A DNA stretch of 34,836 bases. Origin: a virus (Duplodnaviria > Heunggongvirae > Uroviricota > Caudoviricetes). The position numbers and the translations under genes were made by a program. The notes beneath the pieces were generated by a model. That model ran no database searches. It was not told the DNA's origin and worked only from the letters and a program-made list of their open reading frames with translations. The stretch is taken from positions 1-34,836 of IMG/VR virus record IMGVR_UViG_3300014204_000008, one strand, 5' to 3'. Numbering within the stretch: position 1 is the stretch's first letter; every line of letters begins with the position of its first letter. Below, piece by piece: positions 6,179-25,670 of the stretch.

Positions 6179-6646
6179 TTATTTAATAATTTCTCCTAAG
6201 AATTCTCCAAATAATTCTCTAGCAACCGCTATGTATACTGAAGAAGCTTCTTCAGGTGTATCGTATAGACCTAAGTGCATTTCCTTATCATGATAGTGAA
6301 TCCTGGCTCTCCATTTATTCCTAAGTGAATGCCAAGATACGCCTCTAAATCCACTTTTATTATCATGTTCCATTGATTTATTCCATTGATTTTGAGACGG
6401 TGTCACATATCTAAGATTACAACGTCTATTATCAAACCTATTTCTATTGATATGATCTATCTCAAAACCTTCTTTTTTTGGTAGAATAAAATGATGGAGT
6501 TTCTTTGAATGATTCTTTCCATTTATTCTTTCAGTATGCGTCCTTGGATATTCATTTCCTTTTTGACCAGAAGTGCTCCATGTATATTCATCTAATAAAT
6601 CCATGTATTCTGGATCTAAGATTATTTTTTCATGTACACTTTTCAT
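6179..6646 (-). CDS. HNH homing endonuclease with C-terminal AP2-like DNA-binding domain
   Basis: EIDHINRNRFDNRRCNLR (HNH core) followed by SGFRGVSWH...KWRARI...HLGLYDTPEEA (AP2-like). Confidence 0.9.
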   Translation of the reverse strand: MKSVHEKIILDPEYMDLLDEYTWSTSGQKGNEYPRTHTERINGKNHSKKLHHFILPKKEGFEIDHINRNRFDNRRCNLRYVTPSQNQWNKSMEHDNKSGFRGVSWHSLRNKWRARIHYHDKEMHLGLYDTPEEASSVYIAVARELFGEFLGEIIK

Positions 6647-6650
6647 AGAT

Positions 6651-8411
6651 TTATTTTATTTTTTCACGCAAATCAGTCCAACCTTCTATTTTGTCTACTG
6701 TCGTTTCTTTCCAATTTCTACAACTTCTTAGGCTTTTGAATTCTTCAGGTTTCCACTTTGAACGTGATAAGTTAGAAGAATGCCGTACATCTATATTTGG
6801 AATCTTAGCTTCCCATGTTGAAGATTTATCATCACTGAATCCTCCAAGCCTTAGGCTCCTCGTGCCACATTCGTAGCCACGGGTGAAATGCCTTCCATCA
6901 TCTTCTTCTTCCATTATGTTTACTCTATTTTCATATTCTGGAAGGAGCTTTGATAGATAGGCACACATCTGAGAAAGGCTCTTATGATCATATTTCACAC
7001 TGAATCCATCTTCTTGTCTTACTCTCCATAGATTCGAGTTGTAATAGAAGGCATTCGGATCAGGAGGTAAGAAGTCTGTGTAACCTTCTCCGTAAAGCAC
7101 ATCATGTTCTAAGAAATAGACGATCTCAACACCCATCTTTTCTAACTCTTGAAGCCCTCGAAGGATCTGTCTATGCATCGTGAGTTTACCTCTTTCCAAC
7201 GACATGACGATATTTGTACCAAAACCTTCTAATGGCTTGAGTGATACAGATACGAGTGGTCTATCTCCAATGACTTTTAGGATCTGATTTCGTACCGTAG
7301 TGGCAAGCGGGTCTGGAAGTTCGTTGTCTGTGTAGTAGAGACAGCCGATGAGATGGCTTGATTCAGAATAAGAGAAGCTATTCTTGTCCGTAGAGACCTC
7401 ACCAGAGGCAACAGGAGCCTCTAGGAGAGGTTTTTCTGGCGAAGTGGTATCTTTAGACCTTTGATAGAATTCTTCACCTTTTTGATGCGCCTCATTCATA
7501 TCTTCTTCACTCCAACCTCTTACAGGCGCGAACTTCTCTACAAGCCAAGAAAGTGGACGTATCTGCTTGTTCCATTTGTTATTGAAGAAGAAATCCTTTG
7601 CCATCTTCTTTGCATTCTCTACTTTTTGGAAGTCCTGCTGATAAGGGAACCCGAAATCTTGGCCTTGGGTTCTAAAGCAATGTCCATACCACGTCTTCTT
7701 GTTTATGATTACTCTTCCTCCTGATAACCACGCTTTACACGCTACTTCGATGCCTTGTGACCCCCATGATCCGAATGCTTCATCACAAATCTTATACTCC
7801 CAATACTTATCTCTTGTAATCATGAATGCAGAACCCTGAAGGCTCATTGATTCTACGTAGTCACCTATCTGTTTTTTCTTGTAATCATTGAAATATTGGA
7901 AGTGTGGAGTTGAATCGAAGCAATATGAGGTAGATGTTGGATTTGTCTTTGGAATCCATACAACCTCTTTATCTGTTTTTTCTCCACACTGTGTACATGA
8001 ACCACTTGGACCCTGGTACCTTCTATGTCCATTCTTACAAATCCAGTTGAAGACATGAAGATTACGCATTGCTGGAGCCATCACAACATCATCTCCAAGC
8101 TCTTTAAATGCTTCAAGCATCTTAATGTCAAAACCATCATCAAAGGCACAATGGGCATCAACTTTCATGAGGTACTTAGCACGAGAGAGGGCAGCCGCTT
8201 GATTCGTTGCAGCTCTTTGTCCTCTCGACTCCATGTTTGTAATGATAGTGATGCTTGGATCTGTTGGTATTTCAGGTATATCCGTTTCAAAGCCATCAAG
8301 TACGATGATGATTTCTGTGTTCCCTTGAATATGGCAAAGAAGATCCTCTACAGTTTTTCCAAGCCATTCTTCATTCTTCGCTGGAATAAGTATTGATAGG
8401 TCGTAATTCAT
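6651..8411 (-). CDS. Two-domain GT-A glycosyltransferase; N-terminal domain with polypeptide GalNAc-transferase-like motifs
   Basis: LSILIPAKNE; GQRAATNQAA; KVDAHC (DxH); WGSQGIEVACKAWLSGG...WYGHCFR. Second domain CLYYTDN...VYFLEHDVLY after a low-complexity linker. Confidence 0.85.
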   Translation of the reverse strand: MNYDLSILIPAKNEEWLGKTVEDLLCHIQGNTEIIIVLDGFETDIPEIPTDPSITIITNMESRGQRAATNQAAALSRAKYLMKVDAHCAFDDGFDIKMLEAFKELGDDVVMAPAMRNLHVFNWICKNGHRRYQGPSGSCTQCGEKTDKEVVWIPKTNPTSTSYCFDSTPHFQYFNDYKKKQIGDYVESMSLQGSAFMITRDKYWEYKICDEAFGSWGSQGIEVACKAWLSGGRVIINKKTWYGHCFRTQGQDFGFPYQQDFQKVENAKKMAKDFFFNNKWNKQIRPLSWLVEKFAPVRGWSEEDMNEAHQKGEEFYQRSKDTTSPEKPLLEAPVASGEVSTDKNSFSYSESSHLIGCLYYTDNELPDPLATTVRNQILKVIGDRPLVSVSLKPLEGFGTNIVMSLERGKLTMHRQILRGLQELEKMGVEIVYFLEHDVLYGEGYTDFLPPDPNAFYYNSNLWRVRQEDGFSVKYDHKSLSQMCAYLSKLLPEYENRVNIMEEEDDGRHFTRGYECGTRSLRLGGFSDDKSSTWEAKIPNIDVRHSSNLSRSKWKPEEFKSLRSCRNWKETTVDKIEGWTDLREKIK

Positions 8412-18461: not shown

Positions 18462-19345
18462 CTGATTGTTTAGACCAGCTAATGACCCGTAGCTTTTTCG
18501 GAATTGGGATCAAGGTCCCAATAGAGGGGTGATTTTTCGTCCCACCCCTCTGTAGGACTATACCGTCTCAGTGAGAAACGATACTATGAACTATGAACTA
18601 AGATCTGCGATTCGACTATCGAATCTTCTTGCTATCTTCAGACACATGGAAATGAATGCTTCTTCAGATAGAACGAGTTTGGCTTTATTGCACAGAGCAC
18701 AACAGGGTCGAATATTCTCTATAGAGTATGGACCTTCTGAATCTATTCTATCAAGTCCGATTCCTTGTATTTCATCGCCACAATAGTAACATGGTTTGTT
18801 CCAATATTCATTGAATTCTTCAAATGAAAGGAGGAATGGGATGTCTCTAACATTAGCAGAACTCTTATACGTAGAATACCTTTGCCACGGCTTATTCTTG
18901 TTTCCTCTACAACGAGACCTATGGCATTCCTTACATTCATAGGATAGGTTCAATAACCTTCCTGTATGGACTCCATACTCTGTTAATGGCTTTACAACGC
19001 CACAGCCATGACATCTTCGCGTTTGATCTATAACATTTGTCGTATCCGGTTTCTTCGTGTCTGGATGCTTCTTGTGCCAATAAGCAGATTTTGCTTCTTT
19101 GCATAGATCGCATCTACAACCTTTGTCATAAGACCATTTCGTCCCATGTTTTCTTATTGGGCAGTTTTTTCTAAAGTCCGATTTCGCCTTCTTACAAAGA
19201 TCACATCTACAACCTTTGTCATAAGAAGATGTCTTTCCATGAGTGATTCGATCTTCCGAATCACAGATCTTAGTTTTGCTGAAATGAGAGGGGATATTTT
19301 TCATATCCCCAATCATCTCATACTTTCTCTAACAGTACAAGCACC
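18462..19345 (-). other. Structured RNA-like element enclosing the HNH ORF (partial group I-like features)
   Basis: 19-bp long-range inverted repeat (19257..19275 with 18596..18614), several hairpins, S-like GGTATAGTCC at 18555..18564 and end motif AACAATCAG. No clear GACTA P7 partner. Confidence 0.4.
18591..19316 (-). CDS. HNH/His-Me finger endonuclease with N-terminal Zn-finger repeats
   Basis: Two HGxxxSYDKGCRCDLCK repeats; CHGCGVVKP...CKEC; CYYCG...GLDRIDS...YSIENIRPCCALCNKAK. Confidence 0.85.
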   Translation of the reverse strand: MIGDMKNIPSHFSKTKICDSEDRITHGKTSSYDKGCRCDLCKKAKSDFRKNCPIRKHGTKWSYDKGCRCDLCKEAKSAYWHKKHPDTKKPDTTNVIDQTRRCHGCGVVKPLTEYGVHTGRLLNLSYECKECHRSRCRGNKNKPWQRYSTYKSSANVRDIPFLLSFEEFNEYWNKPCYYCGDEIQGIGLDRIDSEGPYSIENIRPCCALCNKAKLVLSEEAFISMCLKIARRFDSRIADLSS

Positions 19346-19351
19346 GAGGTG

Positions 19352-21343
19352 TTATGAGGTGATACCCTTCAAAAGTGCACATCTTGAGGCCTGCATACGC
19401 TGCAAACCACACTCTGTAAGGTATTCATCGACCACACCGTCCTGACCTGGAGTCTCGACATTTGTGCGGAGGACTGTATCTCGACCAGGAATGTAACGAT
19501 AGACGAAACAATTCATGTCGAGCAAGAAGGCATAACCAGCATAAGCACCCTTGAGAACTTCGCTATTGTTAACGATGTTCACGTTACCGAATGCTGTCTG
19601 CCACTGAGAGATCTTCACACCGTACGTCGACTGATCCATGCGTGTCTGGAGCTGACCACGAGCAATTTCATTGATCGCAGAAAGAACAAGACCTCCGCAC
19701 ATGAGGATCTTTGTCGAATCACCGTAGGTGAATCCTTCACGAAGGAAGGTTTCCATGTCAGGAGCAGTCAATGGACCACCCTGGTTCTGAACATAGGAGT
19801 TACCAGCTTCAATGAATTCGAGTACACCACCGGTCGCACGACGTGGATGACCCTGCGTACCTGTCGTATCGAGCTTCTTCTCACCAAGCATGAAGGCTTT
19901 TTCGATATCGAGCACGTGTTCTACTCCAATCTTTGCACGTTGATATGGCAACATTATTGTTACCGTTCAATTGAACGGAAGCGATCATTTCTGTCGCTTT
20001 CTCTATGTCTCCATAGAGATCAGACTATATCATCCCATTTCTGGGTCTAGCGTTTAGTCGTTGAGGATTCTGGTTTAAAACCAGTCTTTCCTGCTGATTG
20101 ACTCTATCCATTGGATTTTTAGTATTTCTACTACCAATGGCCTAACGAGTTATTCCAGCATATGGCTAGATTTTCTTAGATTTTATCTAAGGGACTATTC
20201 ACTTAATCCTTGCCCCCGTATGGGTTCAACGCGGCTTCCGTCCCAGTCACAGCGAGTGTGTGGCGGAAAATTTGGGAGAAGTTCGAATTTCGTGTCGTCT
20301 GCGTCATGTTGGCGTTACGAACACCAGCATTTTCTTCGTTGACGTTACCGATGATGAACAAGTCATCTCCAGCAACACCAGCAGCAGCGGCAGTCGTACC
20401 GAAAGCACGAGCAGCCGTGATGGATGTTGCGCCAGCGATCGACGCGACAAGCATCACTTCACCAGTTCGGGCGTTCTTGATCTGATCTCCAACTGTGAAG
20501 ATGTAACCAGAACTTGAACCGGCACCATACACAGTGATCGTAACAGCGTTGTCAGTAGAGTTATAAGCTGCACCGACTTTTGCATAACGACCACCATGGT
20601 AATCTTCTCTATTATTGTTAACTACATGTCTCCATGTAGATCGGACTATATCATCCCTCATATGCCTATTTAGAGGGGCTAACGTCTAGTCTCTGAGGAT
20701 TCTGGTCTAAGACCAGTCTTTCCTGCTGATTGTCCATAATATCTTCATTTTCAGGGTTCGTTGACCATTCACATGATCAAATCCTAGAAGATACTTATCT
20801 GGAGTTTCCAGCATATGGTTAGCTTTTACTTGGTCAGAAGTTTAACCAAGAGAATTCTGGGTTATTCAAGATCGGGGCCTTTCGAATCCCTGCGCCCTTC
20901 CATGAGTTTCCTTCCGAGTCCTTTTTACCTGGAGTCGTAAGGAGCGTCACGAATGGATGCTTGTTGGTTTCAAGAAGCATGATCTTATCGAACACTTCTA
21001 CTGGCAAACGACCTTCTGTGCTCAACGTTGCTGTGGAGCGAGCGGCGTTACTGCCAGCGATTGCTACAGTTCCCTGCGAATGAGAGGGTTCTGTGTAATT
21101 ACTGTGTTAACTACATGTCTCCATATAGATCGGACTATATCATACTGTTTCCAGTGGGAGCGTATAGTCTCTGAGGATTCTGGTTTAAAACCAGTCTTTC
21201 CTGCTGATTGACTCTATAACTATTATTTTCAGGGGTCGTTGAAAGCTTACGCAATCAAAATCCTAAATAGTTCTTAACAAGTTATTCCAGCATATGGCTC
21301 CCTTTTATATCCGCACTACGAAGCAATACGGATAACTAGGCAT
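19352..21343 (-). CDS. Major capsid protein (DUF5309/SU10-like, HK97-type), 4 exons: 21343-21328, 21099-20844, 20608-20206, 19951-19352; spliced 424 aa
   Basis: Exons join in frame (16+256+403+600=1275 nt), giving MPSYPYYTEPSHSQG...NPEFSWL/EDYHGG...NPYGGKD/LPYQRAK...LLKGITS. Motifs NFSQIFRHT, EKAFMLGE, TGGVLEFI and QTAFGNVNIV are capsid-like, and the gene follows the scaffold. The exon 1/2 junction is less certain than the others. Confidence 0.85.
19952..20205 (-). mobile_element. Group I intron 3 of the capsid gene (254 nt, no ORF, IB-like core)
   Basis: P ATGCTGGAA, Q AATCAGCAGG, R TCAACGACTA, S GATATAGTC. The 5' exon ends in U (GAT) pairing with GTCC; terminal G in AACAATAATG; removal restores GKD/LPYQ. 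Confidence 0.9.
20609..20843 (-). mobile_element. Group I intron 2 of the capsid gene (235 nt, no ORF)
   Basis: P ATGCTGGAAA, Q AATCAGCAGG, R TCAGAGACTA, S GATATAGTCC. P1 CTTGGTT/GACCAAG with U-G; P10 AGAAG/CTTCT; terminal G; restores SWL/EDY. Confidence 0.92.
21100..21327 (-). mobile_element. Group I intron 1 of the capsid gene (228 nt, no ORF; apparently non-G terminus)
   Basis: P ATGCTGGAA, Q AATCAGCAGG, R TCAGAGACTA, S ATATAGTCC. P1 TATCCGT/GCGGATA; P10 ATTAC/GTAGT. Boundary can slide by up to 2 nt because of an AT repeat. Confidence 0.82.
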
Positions 21344-21423
21344 ATTTTATGTTGTTTGAGTTTTCGAATGAACAATCGCCTAAGAACGATCTGTTCTTTT
21401 GTTTTTATTTTTTCTAGAAATCT

Positions 21424-22200
21424 CTAGAAAAGATTCGGATTTGATGTTCCAGCAATCAAGATATCGGCAAGTTTCCCAGCTTCAACTCCTGAAACAGAAC
21501 GCGCACCACCGCCAGCGGCATTTGCTGCAAGACCTTTGGAGGCTTCAGCAATTTCCTCTTCTTGCTGTTTGGCTAGTTTTTCAGAAAGGACTTTACCCTT
21601 CACTGCGTTATAGAGTATTTCAAGATCTACGATACCAGTTTCCTTGCTCAATTCAGCGATCTGATCGGCATATTCAGGAAAGTCTTTCGTCGACCGCATA
21701 AAATCATCAGACTTTTCCTTCCATTCATTCTCCTCTTCTCTCTTCGAAAGATCTTTCTTCAAGTCTTCTTTCATCTTAGACTCAAGTTTAGATAATTCTT
21801 CTGAGATAAGTTTAGAGATTTCTGACGGAGAAGCTTTGAGAATAGCATCTCCAAGTTTTTCTTGGACATTCTTCTGAGCTTCGGTGACATTCTCAGCTTC
21901 CTTTTGGGTAATTTTTCCCTCAAGGAGAGGTTTAACGAGACTGTCGTCGATCTTATCGTGCATGATTGCGTTGATGAGTTCTGGATTTGCATCCAGTTTC
22001 TCTAAGAGAGGGTCGAGAAGTTCGTATTTATCCAAAGCGGACTTAAGATCCCCCAATTGACGACCCTGATCACCGAACTTGCTTTCAAGATTACGGTACA
22101 TGGTCTCAAAATCTGCACTCTTGTTCGGCTCCCCTGCCTGAGCAGGACCGATTTCGTTAGGGCTACCCGCGTTGACGGACCCTGCGATTTCATTTGGCAT
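21424..22200 (-). CDS. Capsid scaffolding protein
   Basis: Acidic, helical/coiled-coil 258-aa protein immediately upstream of the capsid gene. Confidence 0.75.
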   Translation of the reverse strand: MPNEIAGSVNAGSPNEIGPAQAGEPNKSADFETMYRNLESKFGDQGRQLGDLKSALDKYELLDPLLEKLDANPELINAIMHDKIDDSLVKPLLEGKITQKEAENVTEAQKNVQEKLGDAILKASPSEISKLISEELSKLESKMKEDLKKDLSKREEENEWKEKSDDFMRSTKDFPEYADQIAELSKETGIVDLEILYNAVKGKVLSEKLAKQQEEEIAEASKGLAANAAGGGARSVSGVEAGKLADILIAGTSNPNLF

Positions 22201-23516: not shown

Positions 23517-25670
23517 TTAACGCTGGATGCTTGAAGCACGAGACATCAATGCAGCCTCAGGATTTGAATTGTTTCCCTGAGATATATTTGTATTCACTTT
23601 TCCAGTTCGATTCAATCCTCTAGGATTCGCCTTAGACTGTCTCGGGACTCCTCTAACCGTAGGAGGTTGAGCAGAAGAAATGTCTATCGGCATTGAAGCT
23701 TCTCCAAACTGGCTCGAAGCATCAAAGCCTCCTTGGCTTGGCATAGATCTGCCAAGAAGCGCAAGAGCTTGAGCAAGAGCTTGAGGATCAAGCGTACCAA
23801 GACTTGGAGCAGCCTGTTGTGATCCACCACCAAGCATTGAACTCATATCCATCAAAGCAGCTGACCCACCTCCCTGTTGTGCCATCTGAGCCATCATATT
23901 CGGGTCCATTCCTTCTGCACCTGGAGGTAAAGCACCTGACTGACCTTCCATGCCAGGCATTGTCGGCTGTTCCTGTTCTTCCTTTTTAACACTATCTAAA
24001 GAGAACGTGAAACCATCAGAAAGAACTTTTGATATTAATTTCTCTGGGTCTACGAATGGTAGATTGATGAGAAGTTGGACAAGATCCATGTTCTGTTTCT
24101 TCTTGATCTCTGCCTGCCCAGCTATAGAAGGTAAGACGGTAGCTTTATAATCAAACGTACCATCAAGATCATCTTTAGATATAACAGGAAAGAGCATCTT
24201 TCCGTCATTCCCGAGTATTCTAATATGCATCTCCTTCGTGAAGAACTGCCTCTGAAGAGACATCCAATATCGCATCACGTCAGCACAAGCATCACCGATA
24301 TGATTTACGAATAATCGGACGCGTTCTAATGTAGACTCACGCAAATGTCTTACCTCTGTGGCAGATGCTCCAGAACCACCTACACCCATCGACGAATCAT
24401 CAATACCAGAAGCATATCTCATATCGGCCTTTAAAAGGTCTTCTTCACGATATGCAGATTGCTTGATATCTGAGAATTGAACCTCTCGAACACTCTCAGA
24501 GCCGCCATTTGAATAGATAATACCGAATGGACGCGTAACAAGTTGTTCTTTAGATATATTAGCAACAGGGTTCACGATCCACATCTTATGGATAGACATT
24601 GTAGCCGCATCCAAACGTTGATTCTTGATCATGTTTAACATGATCTGTGGTTGTTCGAGAATAGCTGGTATCCCATAACCTTCAAACTCATTCGGAATAC
24701 GGAGATACGGGACATCTATGAATGGAGCTTCCTTAAAATCAAATGGAATTGGCATGAAGCCTCCCTTAAAAATAGGCACATCATTTACCATGACAGCATA
24801 TGCATCATCAAACGGTCTCCACCATTCAAAGACTTCATGCTTCAACAATGTCTTATCACCTATTGAATCCTGGTACTTTTCAGAGAAAATATTTCCATAT
24901 GACGTACCGCTCTCAGCTCCTCTGGCGATAGATGAATGTGATGCTTTAACCGTTGTTCTGATAGAAGCATAATCATCTAAAATACCTTGGCTTTTTAAAG
25001 CCATTCCTAAACGTTCTTCATCAGCATGTGGATAGCGTCGTTTAATCGCATCTTCTGACAAGACGAGACGCTTAAACCAATATTGCTTATCTTCTCTTGC
25101 GGTATTGTGCCAATCGTACCAAAGGGAATATGGGTCTACGCTCTCACAGAAAGGAGCATCGTAGAAGATCTTCTTTTTATCTTTCCAGATATATTCTTTA
25201 GAATTTGGATCTTTTGATGTTAAAAACTTCAACTGACGTTCATCCTTCTTCCAACTTACTTGAAGAAACCCTGTACCATAGATCATTGCTGATCGAGAAA
25301 GGTCCTCCATGACGGAATCCATCTTTGCGATCTCCCAGAAATAATCTTGTAATTGCTGTTGCTTCTCAGCTTTAAGTTGATCATCAGAAGATCTCCCCAT
25401 GGCTGTAAAATCAGGTCTAGCGTCCAAAATACGTGGTACGAGTGTTTCAACGACAGCTTGGATATACGGAACGAATATATTTGCTTGCCAAGATTTGATC
25501 TCTTTCTTTCGATCACCTGTATAGGCAATATATAATTTATACCATCTATCCAATCGTGGTCTTATTACATTTTCAAAATACAATTTTGCATCGTCTCGTT
25601 GATTACGAAAAGAGACCATGAGTTCCTTCTCATCAAATTTCTCAGGCGAATACATGTCATTCAATCCCAT
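23517..25670 (-). CDS. Portal protein (P22/SU10-like)
   Basis: 717 aa, follows terminase; RSAMIYGTGFLQVSW, VDPYSLWYD, GSGASATEVR motifs; low-complexity Q/G/M/P C-terminal extension. Confidence 0.85.
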   Translation of the reverse strand: MGLNDMYSPEKFDEKELMVSFRNQRDDAKLYFENVIRPRLDRWYKLYIAYTGDRKKEIKSWQANIFVPYIQAVVETLVPRILDARPDFTAMGRSSDDQLKAEKQQQLQDYFWEIAKMDSVMEDLSRSAMIYGTGFLQVSWKKDERQLKFLTSKDPNSKEYIWKDKKKIFYDAPFCESVDPYSLWYDWHNTAREDKQYWFKRLVLSEDAIKRRYPHADEERLGMALKSQGILDDYASIRTTVKASHSSIARGAESGTSYGNIFSEKYQDSIGDKTLLKHEVFEWWRPFDDAYAVMVNDVPIFKGGFMPIPFDFKEAPFIDVPYLRIPNEFEGYGIPAILEQPQIMLNMIKNQRLDAATMSIHKMWIVNPVANISKEQLVTRPFGIIYSNGGSESVREVQFSDIKQSAYREEDLLKADMRYASGIDDSSMGVGGSGASATEVRHLRESTLERVRLFVNHIGDACADVMRYWMSLQRQFFTKEMHIRILGNDGKMLFPVISKDDLDGTFDYKATVLPSIAGQAEIKKKQNMDLVQLLINLPFVDPEKLISKVLSDGFTFSLDSVKKEEQEQPTMPGMEGQSGALPPGAEGMDPNMMAQMAQQGGGSAALMDMSSMLGGGSQQAAPSLGTLDPQALAQALALLGRSMPSQGGFDASSQFGEASMPIDISSAQPPTVRGVPRQSKANPRGLNRTGKVNTNISQGNNSNPEAALMSRASSIQR

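Follow-up and report, generated by a model that had tools for sequence, protein, structure and literature searches.

The stretch of DNA analysed here, hereafter the window, comprises positions 1 to 34,836 of the IMG/VR virus record IMGVR_UViG_3300014204_000008 (Caudoviricetes), a 98,836-bp phage record that has direct terminal repeats and represents a complete genome. Positions 21343 to 19352 on the minus strand encode the major capsid protein (Pfam PF17236, SU10-type). This is the sole major capsid gene of the genome, and a second capsid gene was looked for in the complete 98.8-kb genome and was not found. The gene is interrupted by three paralogous group I introns identified by Rfam, none of which contains an open reading frame (ORF). 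The first of them, intron 1, has intact core helices and is predicted to be a working ribozyme, and its last nucleotide is an adenosine in place of the near-universal terminal guanosine of group I introns (omega-G).

Anatomy of intron 1 and its exons

Exon 1 (21328-21343; 16 nt, ATGCCTAGTTATCCGT) specifies M P S Y P and the first base of a Tyr codon, the same N-terminus as in intron-less MPSYPYY homologs. Intron 1 (21100-21327, 228 nt) separates it from exon 2 (20844-21099; YTEPSHSQG...NPEFSW-L), which is followed by intron 2 (20609-20843, 235 nt), exon 3 (20206-20608), intron 3 (19952-20205, 254 nt) and exon 4 (19352-19951), all on the minus strand, and the gene ends with the stop codon TAA at 19354-19352. 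Exons 2 and 3 have been delimited by alignment with homologs. The spliced ORF of 424 residues aligns end to end with its homologs at about 65% identity and without gaps at any of the junctions. More than 400 relatives have been matched, and the best 120 are mostly intron-less and about 419 residues long. The N-terminal pattern M-x(1-4)-[YF]-P-[YF]-Y-x-E-P-x-H-x-x-G is present in about 110 full-length intron-less homologs among these best 120 of more than 400, and several intron-less homologs start exactly with MPSYPYYTEPTHDQG. MPSYPY is encoded directly before intron 1 and YTEPSHSQG directly after it, and so the N-termini of the intron-less homologs fix the product of exons 1 and 2 as MPSYPYYTEPSH. 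A leaderless or internal capsid start in exon 2 has been considered and rejected because no in-frame start precedes the conserved residues. A search of the capsid gene against a phage GenBank set by blastn gave no match, and a single-protein search for related loci was likewise negative.

The P1 helix of intron 1 consists of 7 bp, UAUCCGU/GCGGAUA, with its 5' strand at 21334-21328 and U21328.G21314 as its last pair, so that the 5' splice site is marked by a U paired with G as in other group I introns. The internal guide sequence (21308-21319, minus strand) is composed of GUAGU (21319-21315), the wobble G21314 and CGGAUA of the 3' strand of P1. GUAGU pairs with AUUAC, the first five nucleotides of exon 2 (21095-21099, minus strand), to form a 5-bp P10 contiguous with P1, for which about 0.007 is expected by chance. 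J1/3 (UAAAA) follows the guide sequence and contains an in-frame stop codon, UAA, at 21307-21305, at which translation of unspliced capsid RNA would end after MPSYPYCFVVRI. The core helices P3 to P9 are intact and show compensatory differences relative to introns 2 and 3. P7 with its enclosed P3' and P8 (21133-21169, minus strand) pairs GACUA (21169-21165) with UAGUC (21137-21133), and the G-binding pair G21169-C21133 is canonical and lies beside a bulged nucleotide. The strings flanking P7 are identical in intron 1 and the G-ending intron 2. A first-pass annotation of this DNA had proposed the ATG at 21343, an intron 16 nt downstream, both guide helices, the junction of CCGU with AUUAC, a canonical P7 and a short read-out of unspliced mRNA, and each of these features has been verified in the sequence.

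Intron 1 terminates with ...AACACAGUA at A21100 and thus without a guanosine; G21102 lies 2 nt upstream. When all in-frame pairs of 5' splice sites (21341-21311) and 3' splice sites (21125-21061) are enumerated, the conserved N-terminus MPSYPYYTEP is obtained from four registers only, in which the intron ends with A21100, A21099, U21098 or U21097. These registers are equivalent because a 3-nt AUU repeat is present at both junctions. In-frame pairs that combine a U at the exon end (U(-1)) in P1 with a terminal G use only G21077 or G21074 and delete at least the conserved YTEPSHS. G21102 can be used only with an exon end other than U, and the product has Asn (PNY) at a Tyr/Phe position; the exon 1/exon 2 junction predicted by the favoured register, CCGUAUUAC, is incompatible with splicing at G21102. 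The expectation that nearby guanosines would fail has thus been borne out, and a junction at G21102 or at TCG/CAG is obtained only with loss of conserved residues. At introns 2 and 3, the same mapping by homology yields a canonical U.G pair and a terminal G. Exon 2 ends with CUUGGUU, intron 2 ends with ...AAUAAUAG at G20609 and exon 3 starts with AGAAG, with a 7-bp P1 ending in U.G and a 5-bp P10 (AGAAG/CUUCU). Intron 3 follows the U.G 5' splice site AAGGAU, ends with ...AAUAAUG at G19952 and is followed by UUGCC. Because canonical sites are recovered at these two internal controls, the mapping method finds canonical sites where they are present.

The DNA sequence of the junctions is supported by two samples. 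Logan contigs of a landfill run, the probable source of the record, cover 20078-21201 and 21188-21700 with 0 differences and 0 gaps over both junctions. In a groundwater metagenome from another study, 20930-21201 and 21289-21641 are covered, again with 0 differences and 0 gaps over both junctions. Because the junction DNA is identical in an independent metagenome, the missing guanosine is not an assembly error, and no contig examined for a sequencing error restores a G. In sediment and freshwater metagenomes, many contigs match only the conserved P4'-P7 block (21160-21214, 20642-20735), over about 50 nt and with small gaps and several differences, which indicates that this intron family is widespread in other genomes.

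Terminal nucleotides across the intron family

Orthologs of the capsid gene have been sought with an exon-2 peptide profile, which retrieved 62 capsid loci from IMG/VR, a few of them with YTEP not preceded by a gene start, and a second search pattern for same-site introns was built on the P1-J1/3-P4 region. Patterns joining the P9 loop or P7' to Y-x-E-P-x-H, and a P4'-P6 core pattern, gave no orthologs beyond chance matches, and a pattern of intron tail plus exon gave 3 chance matches in metagenomes, which are not capsid genes. Rfam at an E-value of 0.001 did not detect the endonuclease-containing same-site introns, and these have been mapped by exons and P1/P10 instead. The site of intron 1, which splits the first Tyr codon behind its first base (CCN U before the intron, AY UAY after it), carries an intron in five further phage lineages, and omega is G in two of them, A in two and C in one. 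The G-ending introns are those of L084/L119 (...ACACAAUG before the exon AUUACACAGAACC) and L107/L120 (...AAUAAUAGG before ACUAC), both with an unambiguous register. L084 and the window have the same 3' exon, and the intron tail of L084, ACACAAUG, aligns with the window tail ACACAGUA. The intron of L139, which is ORF-less, 283 nt long and matched by RF00028 with 71.6 bits, ends with A (...AACACAUCA before ACUAC), as does that of L130/L128 (...AUAUAAUCA before AUUAC), in which there is no G in the last 29 nt. The intron of L112/L113 ends with C (...AUAUCAAUC before ACUAC) in an unambiguous register and is identical in two records.

All six same-site introns have a common geometry, in which a P1 of 7-8 bp ends with U.G and is directly followed by (U)AAAA, and P10, which begins at +1 or +2, pairs 5 of the first 6 exon positions. 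The exons and guide sequences covary, with CCA/UGG in L084, UUUCC/GGAAG in L139, and U or C at exon position +2 facing A/G or G in the guide. Such covariation indicates that selection acts on the P1 and P10 pairings in the G-less introns as well. In the window, only the register in which CCGU is joined to AUUAC and the intron ends with CAGUA keeps the shared geometry, which defines intron 1 as 21327-21100 and its omega as A21100. The first-pass proposal that intron 1 ends in A therefore agrees with the homologous proteins, the same-site orthologs and the geometry of P1, J1/3 and P10.

Other arrangements have been seen near the same site. In L139 (IMGVR_UViG_3300009320_000569, 6385-6700), two group I introns flank a 14-nt micro-exon, ACUACACAGAGCCU (YYTEP); the first of these introns ends in A, and the second occupies an EP/TH site also used in L105/L106. 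A search for short exon-2-like proteins returned a single fragment (P0123) with an intact N-terminus. It is encoded by the 556-nt ENA contig k141_1228670 (L051), which has an uninterrupted MPDYPYYTEP start and an intron directly after NPEFKWF, the insertion site of intron 2 in the window.

Across the family, 23 introns have been mapped by exon homology and P1/P10: 6 start-proximal ones, 13 from elsewhere in capsid genes and 4 from a different gene. Omega-G is absent in 5 of the 23, namely in four start-proximal introns and at site 198 of L121. All five have an unchanged G-binding P7 and a P10 with 5-6 of 6 positions paired. At the other capsid-gene junctions of the relatives, 11 of 13 have U(-1) and a terminal G; the remaining two are that of L005, which ends in G with C(-1), and L121 site 198, which ends in A. 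All four mapped junctions in another gene have U(-1) and a terminal G. The G-less state is thus enriched at the start-proximal site (4/6 versus 1/17; Fisher p 0.008, or 0.02 when the sisters L130 and L112 are merged). In a tree of the ribozyme core, L130 (A) and L112 (C) form a group whose sister is L107 (G), and L139 stands apart. Together with the grouping of intron 1 with introns 2 and 3 in the same tree, this implies at least three losses of the terminal G. The capsid gene of L121 (IMGVR_UViG_3300000571_000003, reverse strand; the same as L112/L113/L133) contains five introns, of which the first, start-proximal one ends in C, the third, at homolog residues 198/199, in A and the other three in G. 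The intron at site 198 has a perfect 8-bp P1 (ACUACACU/GGUGUAGU), a perfect 6-bp P10 (CAGAUU/AAUCUG) and the tail ...GAUUGUAA.

The G-binding pocket does not distinguish the G-less introns. J6/7-P7 and J8/7-P7' are alike in G-less and G-ending introns, without compensation in the pocket. A U in J7/3 (GACUAUACG) has been tried as a marker of G-less introns and rejected, as it is also present in the G-ending introns L121-221 and L005-236. A stronger P10 in G-less introns is a trend only: 5-6 of 6 pairs are formed in 5/5 G-less introns but also in 10/18 G-ending ones. The intron of L005 (IMGVR_UViG_3300033145_002224) at homolog residues 49/51 has an apparent C:G in place of U.G at the 5' splice site, and its terminal G is canonical. 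In L122, L123, L124, L127 and L134, IMG/VR contigs of up to 219 kb, family introns are inserted in another gene after ...AQAMANPIR. Their guide is nearly identical to that of the capsid intron and pairs with AUCCGU, and the four that have been mapped all end in G. The target TATCCGT in that gene is similar to the capsid site, a hint of ectopic spread among like sequences.

Rfam places group I matches in the capsid gene of the window at 20001-20215 (70.7 bits), 20622-20868 (61.4 bits) and 21111-21335 (47.4 bits). At intron 2, the model fits P1 (20843-20870) to a hairpin of the exon and not to the real P1, CUUGGUU/GACCAAG. Because Rfam misplaces this helix and scores intron 1 below threshold, standard annotation would miss intron 1 and misplace intron 2. 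An alignment of introns 1 to 3 shows that they are clearly paralogous, the P4-P7 and P9 blocks being nearly identical. In the ribozyme-core tree, intron 1 groups with its gene-mates, introns 2 and 3 (71% and 69% identity), and its identity with the same-site introns of other phages is 57-59%, which suggests intragenic spread or homogenization of the cores. A P22/SU10-type portal gene (23517-25670) lies upstream of the capsid gene, and a 241-residue ORF (18591-19316, minus strand) starts 36 nt past the capsid stop codon and has no Pfam match at E 0.001.

Alternative registers and the second splicing step

The observations are best explained if intron 1 is a working ribozyme that is cut between CCGU, ending at U21328, and A21327, and between A21100 and AUUAC, starting at A21099. 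The family has probably lost the terminal G repeatedly and tolerates a different omega when P10 is strong. Several observations weigh against this explanation. A search for RNA runs containing the stretch listed none, and neither ligated-exon nor excised-intron reads were found, so that splicing of intron 1 itself is what we infer from the sequence. Going by the biochemistry of the Tetrahymena ribozyme, A or C would be expected to make the second step very slow, and the G-binding pocket of the G-less introns is unchanged. The depth of the groundwater sample is only about 3. The match of intron 1 to RF00028 (E 2.7e-10) is just under the gathering score of 50 bits, and the covariance model puts its 5' splice site 2 nt further on. 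Finally, same-site lineages are few and two of them, L130 and L112, are sisters, so that the start-proximal enrichment comes from small numbers.

The placement by the covariance model corresponds to a different register of the same spliced mRNA, in which exon 1 would be cut after CCGUAU with U21326.G21316 as the splice-site pair and the intron would end with U21098, as had been noted in the first-pass annotation for a junction slid by 2 nt; alternatively, the intron would end with U21097 and the 5' splice site would have a U-A pair. Omega would then be U. The model aligns its consensus splice-site U to U21326, and U21098 lies as far from P9 as the terminal G of intron 2 does. However, the P1 alignment of the model is wrong for intron 2, and P10 would be reduced to 3 bp. 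In the unambiguous orthologs L084, L112 and L107, the cut falls between the first and second bases of the Tyr codon. Moreover, (U)AAAA follows the wobble G at a distance of 6-7 nt in intron 2 as in every same-site intron, and only the register ending with A21100 fits this arrangement. A terminal U is therefore improbable.

It is also conceivable that a recent mutation or an error has removed the terminal G, with splicing incomplete and the genome defective or dependent on a helper. The family tails usually read ...UAAUG before the exon, where intron 1 reads ...GUAAU, and the G pocket is unchanged. However, the sequence is identical in a second sample that differs in study, year and habitat, no variant contig has been found, and the genome is complete with terminal repeats. 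The G-less state is present in four further introns of other lineages, with exon 1 and guide still co-adapted. These facts make a defective intron very unlikely.

The terminal G would be retained if intron 1 ended with G21102 and a C-G pair formed the 5' splice site after UAUCC, giving the N-terminus MPSYPNYTEP. This pairing is in frame, and a C(-1) occurs naturally at site 49 of L005 (C:G) and has been scored in a survey of tRNA introns. However, it places Asn where every full-length homolog has Tyr or Phe, shifts P10 by 2 nt from P1 and breaks the spacing between P1 and J1/3 that is common to all relatives. It also leaves L130, with no G within 29 nt, as well as L139 and L112 without an account, and there is hardly any probability left for it. 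Least probable of all is a fully canonical intron with U21326 as the exon end and G21077 or G21074 as the last nucleotide, the only in-frame pairs in which the full MPSYPY goes with a G-paired U(-1) and a G at the intron end, since the capsid would start MPSYPY-QGTV... and lose the conserved Y-x-E-P-x-H block with YTEPSHS becoming intronic, although this segment is in frame, stop-free and matches the consensus in 7 of 9 residues, and the intron would lack P10 and carry a 34-nt tail that has no counterpart in the family.

With intron 1 ending at A21100, the first step would proceed as normal, with an exogenous G attacking after the U.G pair of the 7-bp P1. In the second step, the 5-bp P10 directly beside P1 on the guide sequence would align the 3' splice site, and exon 1 would attack the phosphate following A21100, although the A would fit the G pocket poorly. 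The terminal G seems to have been lost repeatedly, to A or C, above all at the site just behind the start codon. A possible but rather doubtful account is that ligation does not depend on omega-G, P1 and P10 alone setting the 3' splice site and A or C being accepted in the unchanged pocket. The loss might then be favoured 13-19 nt past the start codon because initiating ribosomes cover P1; a terminal G in the pocket would there permit P1-independent hydrolysis of the 3' splice site, by which the transcript would be lost ahead of the first step. A slow second step in intron 1 had also been suggested to act as a gate on capsid production. The occurrence of G, A and C among same-site orthologs looks like relaxed constraint and not like a tuned regulator.

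Relation to known group I introns

Classical phage group I introns (T4 td, nrdB, sunY; Twort) share with intron 1 a P1-P10 guide, a 5' splice site marked by U.G and an in-frame stop codon early in the intron. To our knowledge, they all end in G, unlike intron 1. A literature search found no paper on group I introns without omega-G in phages. Omega-G is taken to be invariant in group I catalysis, and 3' splice sites are placed by it in annotation tools. The major capsid gene of this phage, which is essential and highly expressed, would depend on an intron without it, and the state recurs (A, A, A, C) in relatives with the G-binding site unchanged. Because gene callers and the Rfam threshold miss intron 1, truncated capsid N-termini are to be expected in databases. 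If spliced as inferred, intron 1 (228 nt) and the intron of L139 (283 nt), both ORF-less, would provide small natural substrates for a G-less second step.

The precedent in hexacorals to which the first-pass annotation had pointed is published, and a bacterial one exists as well. The bacterial intron, Cbu.L1917, reportedly ends in A and self-splices both in vitro and in vivo. This group I intron of the Coxiella burnetii 23S rRNA gene is described as being without the canonical omegaG (Raghavan et al. 2007, J Bacteriol 189:6572). In the hexacoral mitochondrial intron ND5-717, A replaces the universally conserved G in a compact canonical core, ligated mRNA has been observed, and the authors have proposed that omega-A suppresses hydrolysis at the 3' splice site and circularization (PMC8146996, PMC6545197). 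These two published cases indicate that a second step with A is possible. A link between the hydrolysis-suppression idea for ND5-717 and the enrichment at a site where P1 would lie within the ribosome footprint is speculation. Intron 1 resembles both introns in that its last nucleotide is A, mapped here from homology, orthologous introns and the geometry of P1 and P10. However, ND5-717 is organellar, obligatory and vertically inherited and has whole genes inserted in P8, and Cbu.L1917 belongs to another subgroup and to a single conserved lineage and resides in an rRNA gene. The phage intron interrupts a protein-coding late gene 16 nt past the start codon, and the loss has occurred in several lineages, one of which has an intron ending in C.

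In crAss-like phages with large metagenome-derived genomes, group I introns have been described that divide capsid genes into several fragments (Yutin et al. 2021, PMC7886860). Those introns have been recognized by their endonuclease domains, with splice sites and terminal nucleotide unmapped, whereas the introns of the window are ORF-less and mapped at the nucleotide level. Multi-intron capsid genes of crAss-like phages and omega-A in two non-phage lineages are thus already published. What is new is a set of phage capsid introns at one and the same site that are predicted to end in A, C or G.
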